45,146 nucleotides of DNA from Microcoleus vaginatus WJT46-NPBG5 (GCA_019359355.1 JAHHHM010000015.1:1-45146), one strand, 5' to 3'; counted from the first letter of the stretch, positions 2,356 to 24,755 are shown. The notes: generated by a model not told the origin, from the sequence alone. Made by a program: numbers and translations.

Positions 2356-4185
2356 ATGGCACTAATCGTTCAAAAATATGGTGGTAGTTCCGTTGGGTCA
2401 GTCGAACGCATTCAAGCAGTGGCTCAACGTGTATTAAACTCGGTGAAAGCCGGCAATTCGGTGGTAGTGGTGGTTTCTGCAATGGGGAAAACCACCGATG
2501 GGTTGGTGAAATTAGCCAATGAAATCTCCTCAAACCCCAGCCGGCGCGAAATGGATATGCTGCTATCCACCGGCGAACAAGTGACGATTGCCCTTCTCAG
2601 TATGGCATTGCAGGAACTTGGACAGCCGGCGATTTCCCTCACCGGCGCACAAGTGGGTATTGTCACGGAAGCCGAACACACCCGCGCCCGAATTTTACGC
2701 ATTGAAACCGAACGGATGCAACGCCAGCTAGATGCAGGTAAAGTAGTCGTCGTTGCCGGCTTCCAAGGCATCACCAGTACCGCAGACTTAGAAATCACCA
2801 CCTTGGGGCGCGGCGGTTCCGACACCTCAGCCGTTGCCCTCGCTGCTGCACTCCGGGCAGACTTCTGCGAGATTTATACCGATGTCCCCGGTATTTTAAC
2901 CACCGACCCCCGCCTCGTGCCAGACGCCCAGTTGATGGCAGAAATTACCTGTGATGAAATGCTCGAACTTGCCAGTTTGGGCGCAAAGGTATTGCATCCC
3001 CGCGCCGTGGAAATTGCTCGCAATTACGGCGTTCCCTTGGTGGTACGATCCAGTTGGACAGATGACCCCGGCACAAAAGTCATCTCACCGGCACGCGTTC
3101 CCCGCCCCTTGAAAGGCTTAGAAATTGTGCATCCCGTGGATGCGGTGGAATTTGACACGGATCAAGCTAAGGTTTCCCTGCTGCGAGTGCCTGATCGTCC
3201 CGGTGTAGCGGCGCGTTTATTTGGCGAAATTGGCCGGCAAAATCTGGATGTAGACTTAATTATCCAGTCGATTCACGAAGGCAATAGCAACGATATCGCC
3301 TTTACCGTGACCAAACATTCCCTGAATCAAGCCGAAGCCGTAGCCTCTGCGATCGCCCCCACGCTTCGCACTCACCTCGATGCTGCACCCGATGAAGCCG
3401 AAGTTTTAGTAGAACGGAAAATCGCCAAAGTCAGTATTGCCGGTGCCGGCATGATTGGGCGTCCCGGCGTTGCGGCGCAAATGTTCCAAACCCTCGCAGA
3501 TGCCGGTGTCAATATTCAAATGATTTCCACCTCTGAAGTGAAAGTCAGTTGCGTGATAGACGCCGAAGATGGGGATCGGGCGCTTGCTGCCCTCTGCGAA
3601 ACCTTTGAAGTCAATAGTTCGCCGGTACGCGAACAATCTTCTGTTCCCCTCACCGCCTCACCCTCTCTCCCCCTCCCGCCCCCGGTACGCGGCGTGGCGC
3701 TGGATATGAAACAAGCCCGTCTTGCCCTGCGCCACATTCCCGATCGCCCCGGCATGGCAGCGCAGTTATTCGGAGTGTTGGCAAAGCGCAATATCAGTGT
3801 TGACACAATCATCCAATCCCAGCGCTGTCGCATTATTAATGGCGTGGCAACGCGGGATATTGCCTTCACCGTAGCCAGGGCTGATGCGGAGGATGCCCGG
3901 ATGGCTTTGGCAGCTTTGGCGGGTGAGTGGGGAAGCACTGAGGTGGTGCTGGATACAGCAATTGCTAAAGTTAGCGTGGTGGGTTCTGGCATGGTTAACC
4001 ATCCCGGTATTGCGGCGCGGATGTTTGATGCGCTAGCGCAACAGCAAATCAATATTCAAATGATTGCCACTTCTGAAATTAAAATTAGCTGTGTCGTGGA
4101 TGAAGCCAGCGGTGTGCAGGCTTTGCAAGCGATCCACACAGCCTTTGAATTAGCCGGCACTCAAAAAATCGAGGTGCCGGCTTGA
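2356..4185 (+). CDS. lysC: Aspartate kinase of the cyanobacterial long form, with a duplicated C-terminal ACT regulatory region.
   Basis: The N-terminus [13 protein letters not shown] is the canonical aspartokinase start, and the KFGG-like motif is present. C-terminal ACT-like segments recur twice ([11 protein letters not shown]..., [13 protein letters not shown]...). GGAG sits 8 nt upstream of the ATG at 2356. The ORF-track start at 2338 is likely too long. Confidence 0.9.
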
Positions 4186-4215
4186 AGTCGCAGTTGCTTT
4201 GAAAATAGTTGGGAA

Positions 4216-4250
4216 GCGGGGGTGTTTTAGCTGCCCCGCCCCCTTTTCTA
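4216..4250 (+). terminator. Putative intrinsic terminator after lysC: a GC-rich imperfect stem (GCGGGGG...CCCCGC) followed by a TTTTCT tract.
   Basis: GC stem plus T-tract immediately 3' of the lysC stop. The stem is imperfect. Confidence 0.35.
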
Positions 4251-4362
4251 TCGAGTGAATGAATAATTAAGCAGCCAAGGACTTCTAAACTAGAAATAGG
4301 ATTGTTCTGTTAAAAGAACAAGACAACTTCGCGACGATCTAGAAACAGAATTTATCCAGTTA

Positions 4363-4834: not shown

Positions 4835-5560
4835 TTAGGAAAAACCTTGATAGAAAAAGTAAGTGACCATTGGGATAACCGTAGCAGCAATTAAAAGCAC
4901 AACCACGACAATGGTTGCATTGCCGGTGTTGGTGTCTTCTGCTTTTTTAAATGTGCTTTCAACGTTGGTGGTATCTGCCACAACCGGCGCACCCGGATCA
5001 GGCTGACCCGATAATACAGCGACAAGGCGATTACTGGCATCTAAAAATGCTTGATTGTATTTATTGCCTTGCTGCAAAGGCACAAGCAGGGTTTCCGAAG
5101 CCACACTTTCGGCAATCTCATCGGAGAGAATCGACTTTACTTTATCTCCCGTGCGAATTGCTGAGGTATTGGTGACAGTATCCAATACCAACAAGGCTTG
5201 GTTGGCTTGCGCTTCTGGAGTAGGAAACCATTTTTCAAAAAGCTTATTGGTAAAGCTTTCGATGGTTTCGCCGTAGTCAAGCCGGTGGATGGTGACAAAT
5301 CTGACTTCCTTGCCGGTTTGATCGGCTAGCTTCTCCAAAGAGGTGCTGATCCGCCCTTCATTCAGTCGGCTGATGGCATCATCTTCATCCAGTACCCAAG
5401 TGCGCTCACCGGCTGATAAACTCGGCATTTGATAGACGCCGGTGGCGTGTGCCGGTGCCATCATAAATTGCGTCGCTAAAACGAGCGCTGATATTGACAG
5501 AAAAAGACGAATGTGATAGTGAAAAGTGCTGTTTATTTGTTTGAGGAGCTGTTTAATCAT
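4835..5560 (-). CDS. TPM-domain protein (Psb32-like thylakoid-lumen/secreted protein) with an N-terminal signal peptide and a C-terminal TM helix.
   Basis: N-terminal hydrophobic signal (LFLSISALVLATQFMMAPAHA). The TPM-like core is LVLD...IRTGDKV... followed by a hydrophobic tail (IVVVVLLIAATVIPMV). The first ATG is at 5560, since the ORF-track start at 5587 is TTG. AGGA lies upstream. Confidence 0.7.
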   Translation of the reverse strand: MIKQLLKQINSTFHYHIRLFLSISALVLATQFMMAPAHATGVYQMPSLSAGERTWVLDEDDAISRLNEGRISTSLEKLADQTGKEVRFVTIHRLDYGETIESFTNKLFEKWFPTPEAQANQALLVLDTVTNTSAIRTGDKVKSILSDEIAESVASETLLVPLQQGNKYNQAFLDASNRLVAVLSGQPDPGAPVVADTTNVESTFKKAEDTNTGNATIVVVVLLIAATVIPMVTYFFYQGFS

Positions 5561-17701: not shown

Positions 17702-20140
17702 CTATGGCTTCAGAGGCACAAAGTCATAACCGGCACTACTGCCGGCAACTGGTTGAACTTGAACTAAAATTCCAATTCCAGGGATACGCTTACGATCACC
17801 GGAAGGCAAAAACTGCACTTTTCCAGTTGCACCTTCTGCTGCAAAACCGGCACCTGAAAGCACTTTTTGCAATCCGTGGCGGGTGCTACTTTGCTTCAAG
17901 CCGGCGACAATTGCTTGAGTCGTATCATAAGCCATTGCAGAGCGCCAATTCACAGGTGCCCCCCACAATGTCTTTGCTTTTTCAAGAAAGGGATTTTTTT
18001 GAGCGCTTCCAGGATGCCAAACCACAGCTAACACCATGCCATTAACATCAACTTGACCTAATTTAAGAGTATCAAAACTGTACATAGTAGAACTGCCAAA
18101 TAACGTGAGTTGCCCCTTATTGGCTTTGGCTAAATCAATTGCTTGATTGATTCTTTCCACTGATGGAGTCAGGAGCAAAGCATCAGCTCCATCTGCAATT
18201 GCGCTTGAGATCAAAATATTGGGATTGAAATTCGGGTTAGAAAAATCGCAGAGGATTGGGCTAACTTGCCCTCCTTCCTCCAGCACAGTATTTCGGAACT
18301 CTATTTTGATGGATTCACTATAAGGCGATTTTAGATCTGAACAGATAATAAATTTATTTTTGTGAGCTGTCTGGATGGCATAGTGTGAGAGGTTTTTCGC
18401 ATCCCGCCGGCTAGAAGTAACAGTCCGAAATATGTAGCTGCTAGTATAGGCAGTTTCCAAAGCACCACTGGTGGGAGAAATCATCACTAACCCGCCCTCC
18501 TGGTAAATTGGAGCGGCAGCGATAGAAACTTCACTGGCGTTATGACCAACAACTGCTAAAATCTGCTGATTATTGACGAATTCAGTGGCAATCTTTCGGG
18601 CGATTTCTGGCTTGTTATCATCATTGGCAATTGCAACTTGCAACAGCGCCCCGTTGATGCCAGTGCCGGCATTCACTTCATCCTGAACCTGAGCGACACC
18701 TCGCAGAATTTCTTTAGCGATATTAAGGTTGCCACCAATCGGAACGCTAACGGCAATTCTAATGGGATTTTTTGTGCCGGCAGCTTTGGCATTGTTGAGA
18801 TAAATCAGTGCCTCTGGATCGTTCGGATTAACTTGCAGAGAGGATTGCAATTTCTCCTGAGCCATAGCAAAGTCGCTGGTTGCAAACGCTTTGACTCCAG
18901 CCAACTTTTGAGGAGTGGTTCCATGCGTAATGAGAATTCTCTCTCCTAAACTGAATCGACTTAATTGCGGCAGAGATTTTAATGTTAATGAGGTGATTGC
19001 GACAACCACAATGCCCGCAGTAGCTAGCCCTAAAAATCGACCAAATTTTAACAATAAATTGTGGCTTTTAGGCCATTTCAGCGTTTGTTCAACTGGATTT
19101 TGGCAAATCACAGGCAACCAGGTGGCGCAAGGAAAATCTCCTTCCATTCCTTGCAGCTTTTCACGAGCTTTTCGTACTGCTAAATAAAAGCACTCGCCGG
19201 CTGCAAAAGTTTCTAAGAAATACTTCAAAAATGCTTCAGCTACGGGATCGGGTACGGGTTCCCGCATGACAATTAGCTGAGGGATATGAAATTGTGCTAA
19301 AGTTTGCGCTAATCCCAAGCCATCACAAGAGTTGAAAATTGCTAGTTTTAAGCTATGTTTAGTTGCGGCTTTCAGGGCATATTTTAATTCGTCAATGGTG
19401 AGACTTTCGGTTGGATTTATGTGAATTTTTCCGGCTTCATCTCCTGGCTCACTACAACTGTGGCCGGCAAAAAAGAGGATATCCCATCCCTGCTCATCCC
19501 AAAGCTGTTTATCTAGTTCTCTGCGAGTTGGCTCAACCAGCAAAGCTGTTTTTGCCTGGGGTAAGTTTTCTAGCAATTTTTGGTCCGCTTGAACGTCAAT
19601 TCCATCACTGCAACCCAAGATCGCTAGAATTCTCACTCGACCTTTAAGCGGCTTTGATTGTTGCTTTACCCAATCGTAGGAACTTAAAGCAATTTCAGTT
19701 TTGGAGTTATGTTCAAATAAATCCCATAGATGCCAGGGAAGTCGTCGCAGCCGATAATCTTCTGTTTGAATAATGATGCGAACTTCTTCAGAAGAGGTTA
19801 ATTGCTTGAGCAAACTTTCACGAATTCGCAGAAATGACTCGGCCCTCAGCCATGTGTTTAGGTTATAAACTAACTGTTGGGATAATCTGTGGCAGTTCTC
19901 CTTCAATTCGAGGCTAGAAACATTGGTGATTTGTCCGGGTTTCGCTTTGATTCGCACAGGGTTTCCCAGCCGGCGATAGGTTAACTGCCAAGATTCATGC
20001 TGTGCTGCTAACTCAGGTGCCGGCGGCAACTCACCTCGGACGCCCATTGATGCGGCTAACCCTTCTTCTCCAATTTCCAGCTTGACGCGAAAACCCCGAT
20101 CAAAGTCACCATCTAGCTTTAGGACAACTAATTTTCCCAT
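17702..20140 (-). CDS. Multidomain protein of 812 aa. From N to C it has an uncharacterised N-terminal domain of about 150 aa, a CHAT (caspase-HetF-like) protease domain, one TM helix, and a periplasmic type-I solute-binding domain (LivK/Peripla_BP_6-like).
   Basis: CHAT His/Cys dyad context: ILFFAGHS... and LAIFNSCDGLGLAQ. Hydrophobic helix FGRFLGLATAGIVVVAITSL. The C-terminal 400 aa has the PBP pattern (RIAVSVPIGGNLNIAKE...GINGALLQVAIANDDNKPE...ILAVVGHNASEVSIAAAPIYQEGGLVMISPTSG). Confidence 0.8.
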   Translation of the reverse strand: MGKLVVLKLDGDFDRGFRVKLEIGEEGLAASMGVRGELPPAPELAAQHESWQLTYRRLGNPVRIKAKPGQITNVSSLELKENCHRLSQQLVYNLNTWLRAESFLRIRESLLKQLTSSEEVRIIIQTEDYRLRRLPWHLWDLFEHNSKTEIALSSYDWVKQQSKPLKGRVRILAILGCSDGIDVQADQKLLENLPQAKTALLVEPTRRELDKQLWDEQGWDILFFAGHSCSEPGDEAGKIHINPTESLTIDELKYALKAATKHSLKLAIFNSCDGLGLAQTLAQFHIPQLIVMREPVPDPVAEAFLKYFLETFAAGECFYLAVRKAREKLQGMEGDFPCATWLPVICQNPVEQTLKWPKSHNLLLKFGRFLGLATAGIVVVAITSLTLKSLPQLSRFSLGERILITHGTTPQKLAGVKAFATSDFAMAQEKLQSSLQVNPNDPEALIYLNNAKAAGTKNPIRIAVSVPIGGNLNIAKEILRGVAQVQDEVNAGTGINGALLQVAIANDDNKPEIARKIATEFVNNQQILAVVGHNASEVSIAAAPIYQEGGLVMISPTSGALETAYTSSYIFRTVTSSRRDAKNLSHYAIQTAHKNKFIICSDLKSPYSESIKIEFRNTVLEEGGQVSPILCDFSNPNFNPNILISSAIADGADALLLTPSVERINQAIDLAKANKGQLTLFGSSTMYSFDTLKLGQVDVNGMVLAVVWHPGSAQKNPFLEKAKTLWGAPVNWRSAMAYDTTQAIVAGLKQSSTRHGLQKVLSGAGFAAEGATGKVQFLPSGDRKRIPGIGILVQVQPVAGSSAGYDFVPLKP

Positions 20141-21130: not shown

Positions 21131-21828
21131 GGCTCTAAACTAGGCTGATACCCCTGATTTCTGGCAATTTCTTGTAAAAGCGGTAAGCATTTTCTCTTCC
21201 AGTGAGAAACAAGCGCTTGGTAGTTGATTTTTAACTCTCTGGCAATTTCAGATAATTTGTCTGGCGGTTCGTTTAAATAAAGCCGTTTGCTAAGAAGCCG
21301 GCAGTTACATTCAAAGTTGGCTTTCGGATGACATTTCTCTAGTTTTCCTTCTGGATCTTGCTGAATGTATTTTTCTATTTCTAACCCGATGCGTTGTTTT
21401 TCCTCTCTTTGAAGTTGTTCAATATATCCCTCAATTCCGCTGAGAGAGGGAGTACCAAAACCTGTTTCTGATAATTTCTCTAAAGGGTTAAAGTCAGCTT
21501 CATTATTCTCGCTTATTTCATTCAAACTACGCGAAAATCGTTCATCAGGTATATATAAATCTTGAATTCGCCAGTAAAGGTATCCATTAATCCACTTTAC
21601 TAAGCTAATCTGCACCGAAGGCGGACGCGGTTTAAAGGTATGAATATTTTGGCTTACCCACTCCCAGGTTCGATTCAAGGCTTCTAAATAGTCTGGGTGG
21701 GAAGATTTTGACAATCCTGGTAGCTGTTGGATGTGAGCAATCAGCCGATTGAGAGCTTTTTGTTTCTCCGGACTTGGCTCCGGGTATTTACAAACTTCTG
21801 CAATGAGTTTTTTTAGTTGTTCATCCAT
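21127..21828 (-). CDS. ECF/sigma-70-family-like protein of 233 aa, with a region-2-like and a region-4-like HTH segment.
   Basis: Region-2-like aromatic block ALNRTWEWVSQNIHTFKPRP...SLVKWINGYLYWRIQDLY. C-terminal region-4-like segment LSKRLYLNEPPDKLSEIARELKINYQALVSHWKRKCLPLL. Confidence 0.55.
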   Translation of the reverse strand: MDEQLKKLIAEVCKYPEPSPEKQKALNRLIAHIQQLPGLSKSSHPDYLEALNRTWEWVSQNIHTFKPRPPSVQISLVKWINGYLYWRIQDLYIPDERFSRSLNEISENNEADFNPLEKLSETGFGTPSLSGIEGYIEQLQREEKQRIGLEIEKYIQQDPEGKLEKCHPKANFECNCRLLSKRLYLNEPPDKLSEIARELKINYQALVSHWKRKCLPLLQEIARNQGYQPSLEP

Positions 21829-22106
21829 TGTGCTTAATTTCGTTGTCTAATGCCTCCTGTTCCTTTCAAGTTAACATAAAATCACCCTAATCGCTCATGA
21901 AAGATGCGCTCTTTTGAGATGCAAACTTTCTGTAATTAACTTTAGGAACGATTAGGGGGAAGGGGGTTCAGTTTTATTCAACTATTTGATTTATTTCATG
22001 AAATGATTCTTTTGTTGTTTGCTTTTGTTCTTCTTTGTTGCCGGCTACCCTACAATCTCAGATTATCTTTCATCCGCTTATAGCCTCCCTTACTAAAATT
22101 GCTGTA

Positions 22107-22604
22107 CTAATAACTACCGCCGTCGTAACTACTGCTACCACAGTCACTACTACTATAGCTGCTGCTGTCGGAACTGCTGCTGTCATAACTACTGCTATAG
22201 CTGCTGCTGTCATAACTGCTGCTTTCACAGTTTTCATAGCTGCCGGCATCATAGCTACTGCTGTCATGACTATTGCTGTCACAGTCATAGCTGCCAGCCT
22301 CATAGCTATTGCTGTTATTATTGCTTTCACAGTTTTCATAGCTGTCGGCATCATAAGTTCTGCCATAGCTGCTGATGTCAAAGGCACTACTGTCATAGCT
22401 GACATCATCGCAATAGCTGCCGGCATCAAAATCCGTGTTATGGGAGACGCGCTTGTACTTAGAGCCTTTTTTGAAAGGGTTAGATCCTGTAAAGTCTTTC
22501 CGCTTTTTGAGTTGTTTCCGGCTTTTTTTGCTAAGAAATCGGGCGATTGACCAAACAATTAATGCAGTCAGGATACTAATCAATACTAACGCCATAGAAT
22601 CCAT
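22107..22604 (-). CDS. Membrane-anchored protein with an N-terminal TM helix, a basic cluster, and then a Ser/Tyr/Asp/Cys-rich low-complexity tail with repeats of about 13 aa (SYDAGSYENCESS).
   Basis: The ATG start is followed by MALVLISILTALIVWSIARFL and then KKSRKQLKKRK, a positive-inside signal-anchor pattern. The tail repeats are visible at both DNA and protein level. Antisense and alternate-frame ORFs over the same DNA lack good starts. Confidence 0.45.
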   Translation of the reverse strand: MDSMALVLISILTALIVWSIARFLSKKSRKQLKKRKDFTGSNPFKKGSKYKRVSHNTDFDAGSYCDDVSYDSSAFDISSYGRTYDADSYENCESNNNSNSYEAGSYDCDSNSHDSSSYDAGSYENCESSSYDSSSYSSSYDSSSSDSSSYSSSDCGSSSYDGGSY

Positions 22605-22745
22605 CCTTTTGAGGAGTATCTAAATTTGACTGGACTTTTAAAAAAAGTCGAAAATGGCTGGTTCTAGAACTTTGATTCTTCGTGGGTATAGCTGGTTGCG
22701 CCACTTTTAAACATATCGAAATGGCACAACCAGTTCTTCATGAAT

Positions 22746-24755
22746 CTAGCTGTAGACGAAGTAGCTTTCTGTCAGATTTAAACCTGTTAGCCCGGCAACC
22801 TTGGCAATGAGTTCATCTTTAGAACTTAAGCCAGATGTGCCATCATTATCGAGGTAGATATTAGTACAGGTCCCGACTGAGGATAAAATGTAGTCAGTTG
22901 CAGAACCCGCTAGTTGAATAAAATCTTCGCTGAGTTTAAAGCTTCTTAAGAGAGCAAAATCAGCACTCCCGCTATTACTGGAATTGCCATCATTGTAGTA
23001 GGCTCCTTTACCGGCATCTCCCAAGATAAACCGATCTGAACCGCTGCCTCCGGTGAGGGTATCTAGTTCGCCAACCCCTGGAGAAGTGGCTAAAGAGTCA
23101 CAGCCAATCAGAACATCTTTGCCGGAACCACCATTGAGCCAATCATCGCCGGCCCCACCATCAAGCGTATCTTTGCCGGCTCCCCCATTGAGGGTATCAT
23201 GACCCGTTCCCCCATTGAGGGTATCATGACCAGCACCGCCATCAAGCAAGTCATGGTCAGAACCGCCATCCAGTAAATCATGGCCCTCTAAGCCATCCAG
23301 CGTGTCCATCCCCATGCCGCCGTAAAGGCTATCATGCCCTGCCGTGCCAACCAGTAAATCATGGCCGGCGTTTCCTGTGAGAGTGTCATTGCCATCTGGT
23401 GGTTCACCGCCACCTGGAGGATTTAGGCTGAGTTGAGCCACCCAAACATCAGGCATCTCAGAATCATCAAAGATATTTCCGGCAGTATAAATATTGCCAG
23501 CACCATTTACGGCTACCCCTGACGAGGTATCCCGCCCAGGAGTGTTCAATGCTTTAACCCATTGTTGGTTGCCCTCAGCGTCATACTTGATAACCCAAGG
23601 ATCGGCATTGGGGCTGTCAAAAATTGCCGGCTCTCCAGTGCCTCCCGAAACGTAGACATTGCCGGCGTCATCTAATGCAATGCCATTGGCGTAATCATAA
23701 TCCGCAGTCCCCCACTGGTGAGACCACACTTGGTTGCCCTCAGAGTCATACTTGGCAGCCCAGGCATCAGTGCCAGAGGCTCTTCCCGAAATATAAAGGT
23801 TGCCAGCGCTATCGGTTTTAAAATCCTCTCTGCGGTAATCACTGGCAGCTCCCAACTGCTTCACCCAAAGCTGGTTGCCGGTGCTGTCGTATTTCGCAAT
23901 ATAGGTGTTATATTGACCCCCCAGATCCCCCTGCGTGTCTCCGCAAATGTAAACATTACCAGCACCATCAACGCCTACGTTCTGAGCACTGTCTGCACCG
24001 GCAGTTCCCCATTGCTTCACCCAAAGCTGGTTGCCGGTGCTGTCATACTTAGCAACCCAAGCATCAACAAACCCAGCACTGCTACCGCCTAAATCGCCAT
24101 AGGTTTCTCCCGAAACGTACAGGTTGCCCGTGCTATCGGTGGCTACGTCCTGTGAGTATTGAGGAAGTGCATTGCCAAACTGCTGCACCCAAATTTGGTT
24201 GCCTTGGGAGTCATACTTGGCAACGAAGGCGTCTTCATCGAAGATATAGCTTCCGGCTTTAGGGCTACCCCAAGCGCCTCTGGTATATCCTGTCAGGTAA
24301 ACATTGCCGGTGCTATCTGAAGTAAAGCCAAAACATTGCTCGGTAGTCTCTGTACCGAATTGCTTGAGCCAAAGCTGGTTGCCTTCGGCGCTATATTTAG
24401 CAACCCACACGTCATTTTCCCCAGCACTGCTACTCCCCAAAGTGCCATTGGTGTCTCCCGAAATGTAAACATTCCCCGCGTTATCCGTAGCGATGTCAGT
24501 AGTGGAGTCCCAACTGGAAGTCCCAAACTGCTTAATCCATGCGGTATTGGAGCCAGTGCCGGCATCATTACTGTTAAAATCCGTCTGAGTCACCGGCTCA
24601 CTTGTGCTGCCGGCAAGGCTAAATGTTTCGCTTTCGCCAGCATCACTCAAGCTGCCTTTATCGAGTTCGGTGTTGTTCAAATCAGAAGTAACCGAGTCTT
24701 TTTCAGAAACGTGGGACTGCATTATGTCTTCAATCGGTAGCTGATTACTATTCAT
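22746..24755 (-). CDS. Large secreted protein with N-terminal SBBP-type beta-propeller repeats and C-terminal RTX (haemolysin-type Ca-binding GGxGxD) repeats. It is a probable type I secretion substrate.
   Basis: About 8 repeats of GNVY(V/I)SG.T.G.LGG...G..DA(W/F)VAKYDS.GNQLWVKQ.GT. A nonapeptide run follows (GGAGHDTLNGGTGHDTLNGGAGKDTLDGGAGDDWLNGGSGKD). There is no N-terminal signal peptide, which is consistent with C-terminal T1SS secretion. Confidence 0.8.
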   Translation of the reverse strand: MNSNQLPIEDIMQSHVSEKDSVTSDLNNTELDKGSLSDAGESETFSLAGSTSEPVTQTDFNSNDAGTGSNTAWIKQFGTSSWDSTTDIATDNAGNVYISGDTNGTLGSSSAGENDVWVAKYSAEGNQLWLKQFGTETTEQCFGFTSDSTGNVYLTGYTRGAWGSPKAGSYIFDEDAFVAKYDSQGNQIWVQQFGNALPQYSQDVATDSTGNLYVSGETYGDLGGSSAGFVDAWVAKYDSTGNQLWVKQWGTAGADSAQNVGVDGAGNVYICGDTQGDLGGQYNTYIAKYDSTGNQLWVKQLGAASDYRREDFKTDSAGNLYISGRASGTDAWAAKYDSEGNQVWSHQWGTADYDYANGIALDDAGNVYVSGGTGEPAIFDSPNADPWVIKYDAEGNQQWVKALNTPGRDTSSGVAVNGAGNIYTAGNIFDDSEMPDVWVAQLSLNPPGGGEPPDGNDTLTGNAGHDLLVGTAGHDSLYGGMGMDTLDGLEGHDLLDGGSDHDLLDGGAGHDTLNGGTGHDTLNGGAGKDTLDGGAGDDWLNGGSGKDVLIGCDSLATSPGVGELDTLTGGSGSDRFILGDAGKGAYYNDGNSSNSGSADFALLRSFKLSEDFIQLAGSATDYILSSVGTCTNIYLDNDGTSGLSSKDELIAKVAGLTGLNLTESYFVYS

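Follow-up and report, generated by a model that had tools for sequence, protein, structure and literature searches.

The window analyzed here is a 45,146-nucleotide stretch of DNA whose encoded proteins match those of the MAG Microcoleus vaginatus WJT46-NPBG5, a genome from a terrestrial cyanobacterial culture metagenome set (PMC8354539). Across 13.7 kb it is also 100% identical to a Logan contig (SRR35147778), which represents an independent assembly. Between an SBBP/RTX gene and a run of sigma-like, DUF1822 and CHAT genes lies a short ORF with a Ser/Tyr-rich (S/Y) reading frame. It is on the same strand as these downstream genes and is separated from the sigma-like gene by 278 nt, within which a stem-loop is found:

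17702-20140, minus strand: CHAT/Peripla_BP_6 gene, encoding MBW4681567.1
20171-21130, minus strand: DUF1822 gene, encoding MBW4681568.1
21127-21828, minus strand: sigma-like gene, encoding MBW4681569.1 (KME19_15835)
21882-21960, minus strand: long-range stem CCCUAAUCGUUC...GAGCGAUUAGGG, then GAUUUUAUGUU, in the gap that separates the sigma-like gene from the ORF and outside the latter
22107-22604, minus strand: S/Y-frame ORF of 165 aa, from the first ATG to TAG (22107-22109), scoring higher for codon usage than the other five frames in its repeat half as well as in its non-repeat half
22746-24755, minus strand: SBBP/RTX gene, encoding the 669-aa protein MBW4681571.1

Caspase (CHAT), ECF-like sigma and DUF1822 (TPR) proteins together make up conflict and signaling systems that have been proposed to work via peptidase activation (Kaur, Iyer, Burroughs, Aravind 2021, PMC8195603). 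The three genes that directly follow the ORF match this neighborhood, including the variable ligand-binding C-terminal domain on the caspase protein. MBW4681567.1 is labelled 'ABC transporter substrate-binding protein' in GenBank; its domains follow the order CHAT (caspase-like), hydrophobic segment, Peripla_BP_6, and this layout points to a transmembrane protease with ligand sensing, such as the same study describes. The counterpart of this gene at a related locus (L012) has nSTAND/AAA_16 and WD40 domains instead. RTX (HemolysinCabind) proteins recur directly upstream of sigma/DUF1822/CHAT genes in several relatives and may be a recurring neighbor of these systems. They comprise proteins combining RTX with an SBBP beta-propeller (window 22746-24755, minus strand) or with FG-GAP (L012:684-3545), and short RTX-like proteins (L005, ~5036-5542, minus strand; L006, ~3726-4277, minus strand).

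A minus-strand ORF with an ATG start had been described at 22107-22604 in the first-pass annotation, and such an ORF of 165 aa indeed exists; the wider range reported at the time, 22035-22623, covers all the overlapping ORFs of the locus taken together. Its N-terminus reads MDSMALVLISILTALIVWSIARFLSKKSRKQLKKRK, and the ORF divides into the following parts:

22604-22608, minus strand: Shine-Dalgarno-like AAGGA, 8 nt upstream of the second ATG (Met4, 22593-22595)
22533-22595, minus strand: hydrophobic helix, residues 4-24 (MALVLISILTALIVWSIARFL), predicted membrane anchor (Kyte-Doolittle 19-residue mean 2.36; AlphaFold2)
22497-22532, minus strand: polybasic juxtamembrane cluster, residues 25-36 (SKKSRKQLKKRK), read from the sequence, with topology by the positive-inside rule
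22434-22496, minus strand: non-repetitive basic linker, residues 37-57 (DFTGSNPFKKGSKYKRVSHNT), defined by residue composition
22110-22433, minus strand: polyanionic Ser/Tyr/Asp tail, residues 58-165, predicted disordered, with 15 Tyr-ending units, a net charge of -21 and five Cys
22108-22439, no strand assigned: degenerate tandem repeat with a 15-nt base and 42- and 51-nt higher-order units, found by TRF, repeat search and pattern search

Met4 is the probable real start, giving a 162-aa product. Shine-Dalgarno-like motifs precede 25% of the reference genes (the window's genes) and 7.5% of all ATGs, a likelihood ratio of about 3, and the Logan gene call uses the S/Y frame and begins at Met4. 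Upstream of the ORF, between 22640 and 22745 (minus strand), two hairpins were noted by eye only: a 12-bp hairpin CTGGTTGTGCCA...TGGCGCAACCAG with an 18-nt loop directly after the SBBP/RTX stop, and an AT-rich hairpin, GACTTTT TTT AAAAGTC, before the S/Y start. Both may belong to a terminator or a promoter region. Scans of the minus strand for promoter and terminator consensus sequences returned nothing beyond chance.

The earlier description of a signal-anchor helix followed by a polybasic cluster holds. Residues 1-57 contain 14 K/R and two D/E, and K/R account for eight of the 16 residues directly after the best 19-residue hydrophobic stretch. When all six frames of the window are translated, this pairing of helix and polybasic segment is matched by only one of 24,408 stop-free 35-aa windows, although the criterion was set post hoc and its significance is overstated. 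A single-sequence AlphaFold2 model places a helix at residues 2-29 (pLDDT ~91) and gives the remainder values below 50, consistent with an anchor and a disordered tail. The basic residues follow the hydrophobic segment rather than precede it, and the ORF thus has no signal-peptide layout. According to the positive-inside rule of von Heijne, the basic flank of a membrane helix lies on the cytoplasmic side. Because the polybasic cluster is C-terminal to the helix, an N-out/C-in topology is predicted, which agrees with the cytoplasmic placement of the tail proposed before.

The tail is as extreme in composition as had been claimed, with S, Y, D, N, C, G and E making up 89% of its residues (S40 D17 Y15 G7 N7 A5 C5 E5), but it is 108 residues long rather than about 120 and contains five Cys rather than about six. 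Ser precedes 14 of the 15 Tyr, and D or E follows 10 of 14. The base unit is a pentapeptide, [D/E]-x-x-S-Y, in place of the 13-aa repeat originally suggested; the '13-mer' is a recently duplicated higher-order block, D-A-[D/G]-SYENCES, present in two copies. The underlying DNA is a degenerate tandem repeat, as first thought. TRF detects periods of 15, 42 and 51 nt at 22131-22355, with 73-90% matches, and the 15-mer GACAGCAGCAGCTAT occurs 12 times at up to three mismatches against 1.0 expected, seven of these occurrences lying inside 22155-22379. A repeat search yielded three families in which all 19 copy-to-copy spacings are multiples of 3, an observation that counts for coding, although AGC-type trinucleotide slippage alone would also yield it.

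The repeat is local. No dispersed copies of the 15-mer or of the whole intergenic region were found elsewhere in the window, and no inverted repeats suggesting insertion were seen to flank the repeat region; a dispersed-repeat or mobile-element origin was rejected on these grounds. Derivation from the adjacent RTX/SBBP gene was likewise rejected, there being no nucleotide or protein similarity. A search of 21500-23000 against Rfam (E <= 1) returned no match.

Whether the S/Y frame is a gene has to be judged against the frames that overlap it. There are three overlapping ORFs of 162-171 aa at the locus, and the repeat is stop-free in several frames, so that length alone does not mark an ORF as a gene. 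The other two are:

22035-22550, plus strand: antisense ORF of 171 aa, A/T/V/I-rich, with a TTG start and a codon score per codon of -0.05 in the repeat and -0.39 outside it
22070-22558, minus strand: ORF of 162 aa in the other minus-strand frame, A/M/T/V-rich, with a TTG start and a codon score below that of the S/Y frame

Both are judged to be by-products of the stop-free repeat. Shifted frames of the repeat read as hydrophobic A/V/T/I-rich sequence; in the repeat of dentin phosphoprotein (DPP), -1 frameshifts likewise yield hydrophobic sequence. It is very improbable that either of them is the real gene, which would then encode a very hydrophobic small membrane protein. Both are long, and the A/M/T/V frame was the one chosen by the gene caller for the fragment at the contig edge of the closest related loci (L010 and L011), both of which are short contigs; L010 also preserves this frame together with the position of its stop. 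However, both ORFs begin with TTG only, their codon scores are negative or below that of the S/Y frame, and a protein search with the A/M/T/V-rich product recovered no homologues. Moreover, third-position C in the A/M/T/V frame and third-position G in the antisense frame each occur in one of 108 codons, GCC being the commonest Ala codon in the genes of this genome.

Codon usage gives mixed evidence and does not decide among the three overlapping frames. The S/Y frame has the best score of all six in the repeat part and the sole positive score in the non-repeat part, where it reaches 0.108 per codon, compared with 0.254 +/- 0.104 for coding windows and -0.025 +/- 0.126 for stop-free off-frame windows. 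The codon usage of the 58 non-repeat codons has a density ratio of 0.74, which is uninformative on coding, and a dN/dS-like test of mismatches between repeat copies, equally uninformative, finds no third-position excess. In the tail, 102 of the 108 codons are of NNY type, with C in 53, T in 49 and purines in six at the third position. A purine at this position would create a stop, Lys or Arg, and the near-absence of purines counts for coding.

These observations also bear on the main rival, a non-coding reading of the locus, which we regard as a real, if doubtful, possibility. It holds that the region is a degenerate minisatellite whose AGC/AGT/GAC/TAT-rich 15-nt unit expanded between the RTX/SBBP and sigma-like genes, with the 165-aa ORF and the two others as by-products. 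The existence of three overlapping ORFs fits this reading, as do the indecisive codon usage of the non-repeat part and the missing third-position excess among repeat-copy mismatches. A minisatellite leaves unexplained, however, the in-frame ATG with its Shine-Dalgarno-like site, the pairing, unique in the window, of a 21-residue hydrophobic helix with a polybasic cluster right behind it, and the paucity of third-position purines while C and T are equally frequent.

Annotation records at the locus are inconsistent. GenBank numbering leaves one accession, MBW4681570.1, free between those of the sigma-like protein (MBW4681569.1) and the SBBP/RTX protein (MBW4681571.1), which implies one PGAP-annotated CDS in the gap between these genes and counts for coding. 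Of 20 candidate products for this accession, spanning three frames with several start codons each, none was found on look-up. The 173-kb NCBI contig has no record of either product, 165-aa or 162-aa, and gene calls are unstable, with a different frame chosen at L010; both points favor a minisatellite. The two look-up tables contradict each other both ways: the gene-position index alone contains the 162-aa Logan product, and the protein collection alone contains the 669-aa MBW4681571.1. Negative look-ups at this locus are therefore no evidence of absence.

The ORF looks like an orphan. The full 165-aa sequence found no homologue among 5.8 billion clustered proteins, nor did HMMER among 1.84 billion representatives; Pfam, NCBIfam, PADLOC (E <= 0.1) and the PDB gave no match, and tblastn against plasmids and viral contigs found nothing. 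A lack of protein homologues is what a minisatellite would predict. Even the Logan 162-aa product is absent from the protein collection; low-complexity proteins may thus be poorly covered by it, and the result is weaker than it appears. Comparison of loci at the DNA level is independent of that collection. Among related loci, the repeat is kept only in L010 and L011, where the sigma-like gene has an identity to that of the window of 88% as protein, 86% as DNA and 70% over third positions alone. For the intergenic DNA the figure is 68%, in an alignment with 27 gap columns. In the S/Y frame their repeat reads ...SSSSYDSSSSYSDSY*, with the same AGT TAT TAG end and an in-frame indel relative to the window; both begin inside the repeat, leaving ~47 nt of it visible. 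Over this visible part, the repeat and the end of the S/Y frame have outlasted ~30% neutral divergence. A conserved stop and an in-frame indel at this distance are not explained by a minisatellite. The indel between the window and L010 also shows that the repeat arrangement differs in a close relative, in line with the earlier suggestion that copy number could vary.

More distant loci lack the ORF. Nine of them (L003-L007, L012-L014), with sigma-like proteins 52-69% identical to that of the window, contain no S/Y-rich ORF, either upstream of the operon or elsewhere. At L012 only ~200 nt separate the sigma-like gene from an FG-GAP/RTX gene upstream, and the shortness of this gap, with no ORF in it, again suits a minisatellite. 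The gene upstream of the sigma-like gene encodes a GUN4 protein at L014 and a small caspase-like protein at L007.

Taken together, the evidence for coding is moderate and mixed. On balance, and without great confidence, we lean toward a young, lineage-restricted single-pass membrane protein whose cytoplasmic, polyanionic and disordered tail grew by in-frame repeat expansion. Such a product would insert N-out/C-in into the plasma or thylakoid membrane, placing the polybasic stretch at the cytoplasmic lipid face. The tail would form a flexible cytoplasmic polyanion (net -21) bearing ~15 S-Y-[D/E] motifs and five Cys. It would have grown, and would still vary in length, through slippage or unequal exchange of the 15-, 42- and 51-nt units; all three are multiples of 3, and such events would thus change the length of the tail rather than switch the gene off. 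Judging from composition alone, the tail would most likely act at the membrane by binding divalent cations or basic partners through multivalent electrostatic contacts, and Ser/Tyr phosphorylation might modulate this. The roles suggested earlier, in metal binding, as a phospho-acceptor or as a protease substrate, are likewise guesses from composition.

The stem-loop between the ORF and the sigma-like gene bears on the transcriptional relationship of the two. Its stem is 12 bp long and closes a stretch of ~45-55 nt; GAUUUUAUGUUAA comes next, shortly before the sigma-like gene. L010 (~179-252) keeps the stem with compensatory changes, CCCUAAUCGUUC/GAGCGAUUAGGG in the window corresponding to CACCCUAGCUGC/AGCUAGGGUG, and the z-scores in this comparison of window and L010 are -3.0 and -2.3. 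In addition, the 19-nt sequence TAGGGTGATTTTATGTTAA is identical in the two, in an intergenic region that is otherwise as diverged as described above. The stem and its U-run could serve as a terminator of the upstream unit, a leader element or an operator. They could split the ORF and the sigma-like gene into separate transcription units, and do not suggest simple co-transcription of the two.

The position of the ORF had been taken to raise the possibility of a functional link to the sigma/DUF1822/CHAT operon. This link is unsupported, given the absence of the ORF from the nine related loci, and a stem-loop with a U-run intervenes. From these comparisons, the ORF is most likely not a conserved part of the system. 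It shows no homology to the ECF-like HTH, DUF1822/TPR or EACC2-caspase components (Pfam, NCBIfam, PADLOC; E <= 0.1). The usual partners of ECF sigma factors are single-pass membrane proteins cut by regulated proteolysis. This general pattern, together with the shared strand and the position 278 nt upstream of the operon, would suit a lineage-specific accessory: a membrane-tethered partner, such as an anti-sigma-like tether, or a decoy or substrate with an acidic tail that the membrane-bound, caspase-like CHAT sensor-protease would bind or cleave. In this way, recognition of a ligand by the periplasmic-binding-protein domain would be coupled to the freeing of the ECF-like sigma factor. The pairing of CHAT and Peripla_BP_6 domains in one protein and the proposed signaling through peptidase activation (Kaur et al. 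2021, PMC8195603) would also be in keeping with it. We nevertheless consider such an accessory unlikely. None of the nine related operons has the ORF, no anti-sigma domain (zf-HC2/RskA-type) was detected with Pfam or NCBIfam, and the predicted N-out/C-in topology, which leaves almost nothing outside the cytoplasm, is opposite to that of classical anti-sigma factors. Furthermore, the ORF lies upstream rather than downstream of the sigma gene, the stem-loop and U-run between them are conserved, and the published description of these systems includes no S/Y-rich component (PMC8195603). More speculative still is the idea that an in-frame 15-nt repeat expanded behind a chance helix-plus-polybasic start to give a newly born gene, which this Microcoleus lineage then recruited as a membrane-tethered, polyanionic decoy, tether or cleavable substrate for the adjacent membrane-bound caspase-like sensor and its ECF-like sigma factor; we consider this highly improbable.

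The wider meaning of the locus depends on whether the ORF is translated. If so, it would be a clear-cut case of a bacterial gene that is taxonomically restricted and made up mostly of an in-frame tandem repeat, and its product would be a membrane-tethered polyanion in a desiccation-tolerant soil-crust cyanobacterium, of some interest for the study of gene birth and of bacterial disordered proteins. No long-standing question is touched by it. In practical terms the outcome is negative, in that the ORF supplies no conserved part to caspase/sigma/DUF1822 systems and its length says nothing about its being a gene. Annotation pipelines are expected to disagree on its frame.

Several known kinds of protein were compared with the ORF and rejected. 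In single-pass anti-sigma factors of ECF type, a cytoplasmic N-terminus precedes the membrane helix (N-in/C-out) and the gene lies directly downstream of the sigma gene, with which it is co-transcribed; the N-terminus of the ORF is the helix itself, with 0-3 residues before it and no zf-HC2/RskA-type domain, and its topology, upstream position and intervening stem-loop differ as set out above. The C-terminal tyrosine cluster of a BY-kinase was rejected for want of a domain match and of room in 165 aa for the kinase domain (Walker A/A'/B) that would precede such a cluster. A RiPP precursor was dismissed on the basis of its neighbors (SBBP/RTX, sigma-like, DUF1822 and CHAT-PBP), the lack of a maturase Pfam family (radical SAM, cyclodehydratase, lanthionine synthetase or similar) in the downstream genes and an N-terminal membrane anchor that would be atypical.

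Closer likenesses are found in two other kinds. At L013, whose sigma-like protein has 68% identity, the gene directly upstream of the sigma and DUF1822 genes (132-1616) encodes a UCP032817-like membrane protein of 494 aa with a low-complexity Gly/Cys tail at its end, ...GGGCSGGSDGGGGGDCGGGGCGGGGCGGCGGCGGG*. Proteins of this UCP032817/TIGR04222 type resemble the ORF in having a membrane segment and a Cys-containing low-complexity C-terminal tail, and the one at L013 occupies the same position in the locus. However, the L013 protein is larger and differs in its globular N-terminal domain (PF27765), its several TM segments and its Gly/Cys-rich tail, and the ORF has no Pfam or NCBIfam match to PF27765 or TIGR04222. 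Dentin phosphoprotein (phosphophoryn) shares with the tail a long, acidic, Ser/Asp-dominated low-complexity sequence encoded by GAC/AGC/AGT tandem repeats (PMC2798077, PMC4707025). Unlike the ORF product, however, it is a secreted eukaryotic protein with neither periodic Tyr and Cys nor a membrane anchor. No homology to the ORF was found, the likeness being one of composition only. DSS peptides bind calcium phosphate (PMC2798077, PMC4707025), a parallel that suggests cation binding as a possible activity of the tail; DSS(S) runs are present there, broken by Tyr every 4-12 residues.

The broadest comparison is with orphan genes that are born or extended by tandem-repeat expansion. These form a general category rather than a family, and for this ORF no ancestral repeat-free state of the exact intergenic region was recovered. 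The original observation is correct, and its object is of an ordinary kind, an orphan low-complexity ORF. As in other members of the category, no homologues were found, traces of the ORF are seen in a single close relative, codon adaptation is marginal, and the sequence consists mostly of a degenerate in-frame repeat.
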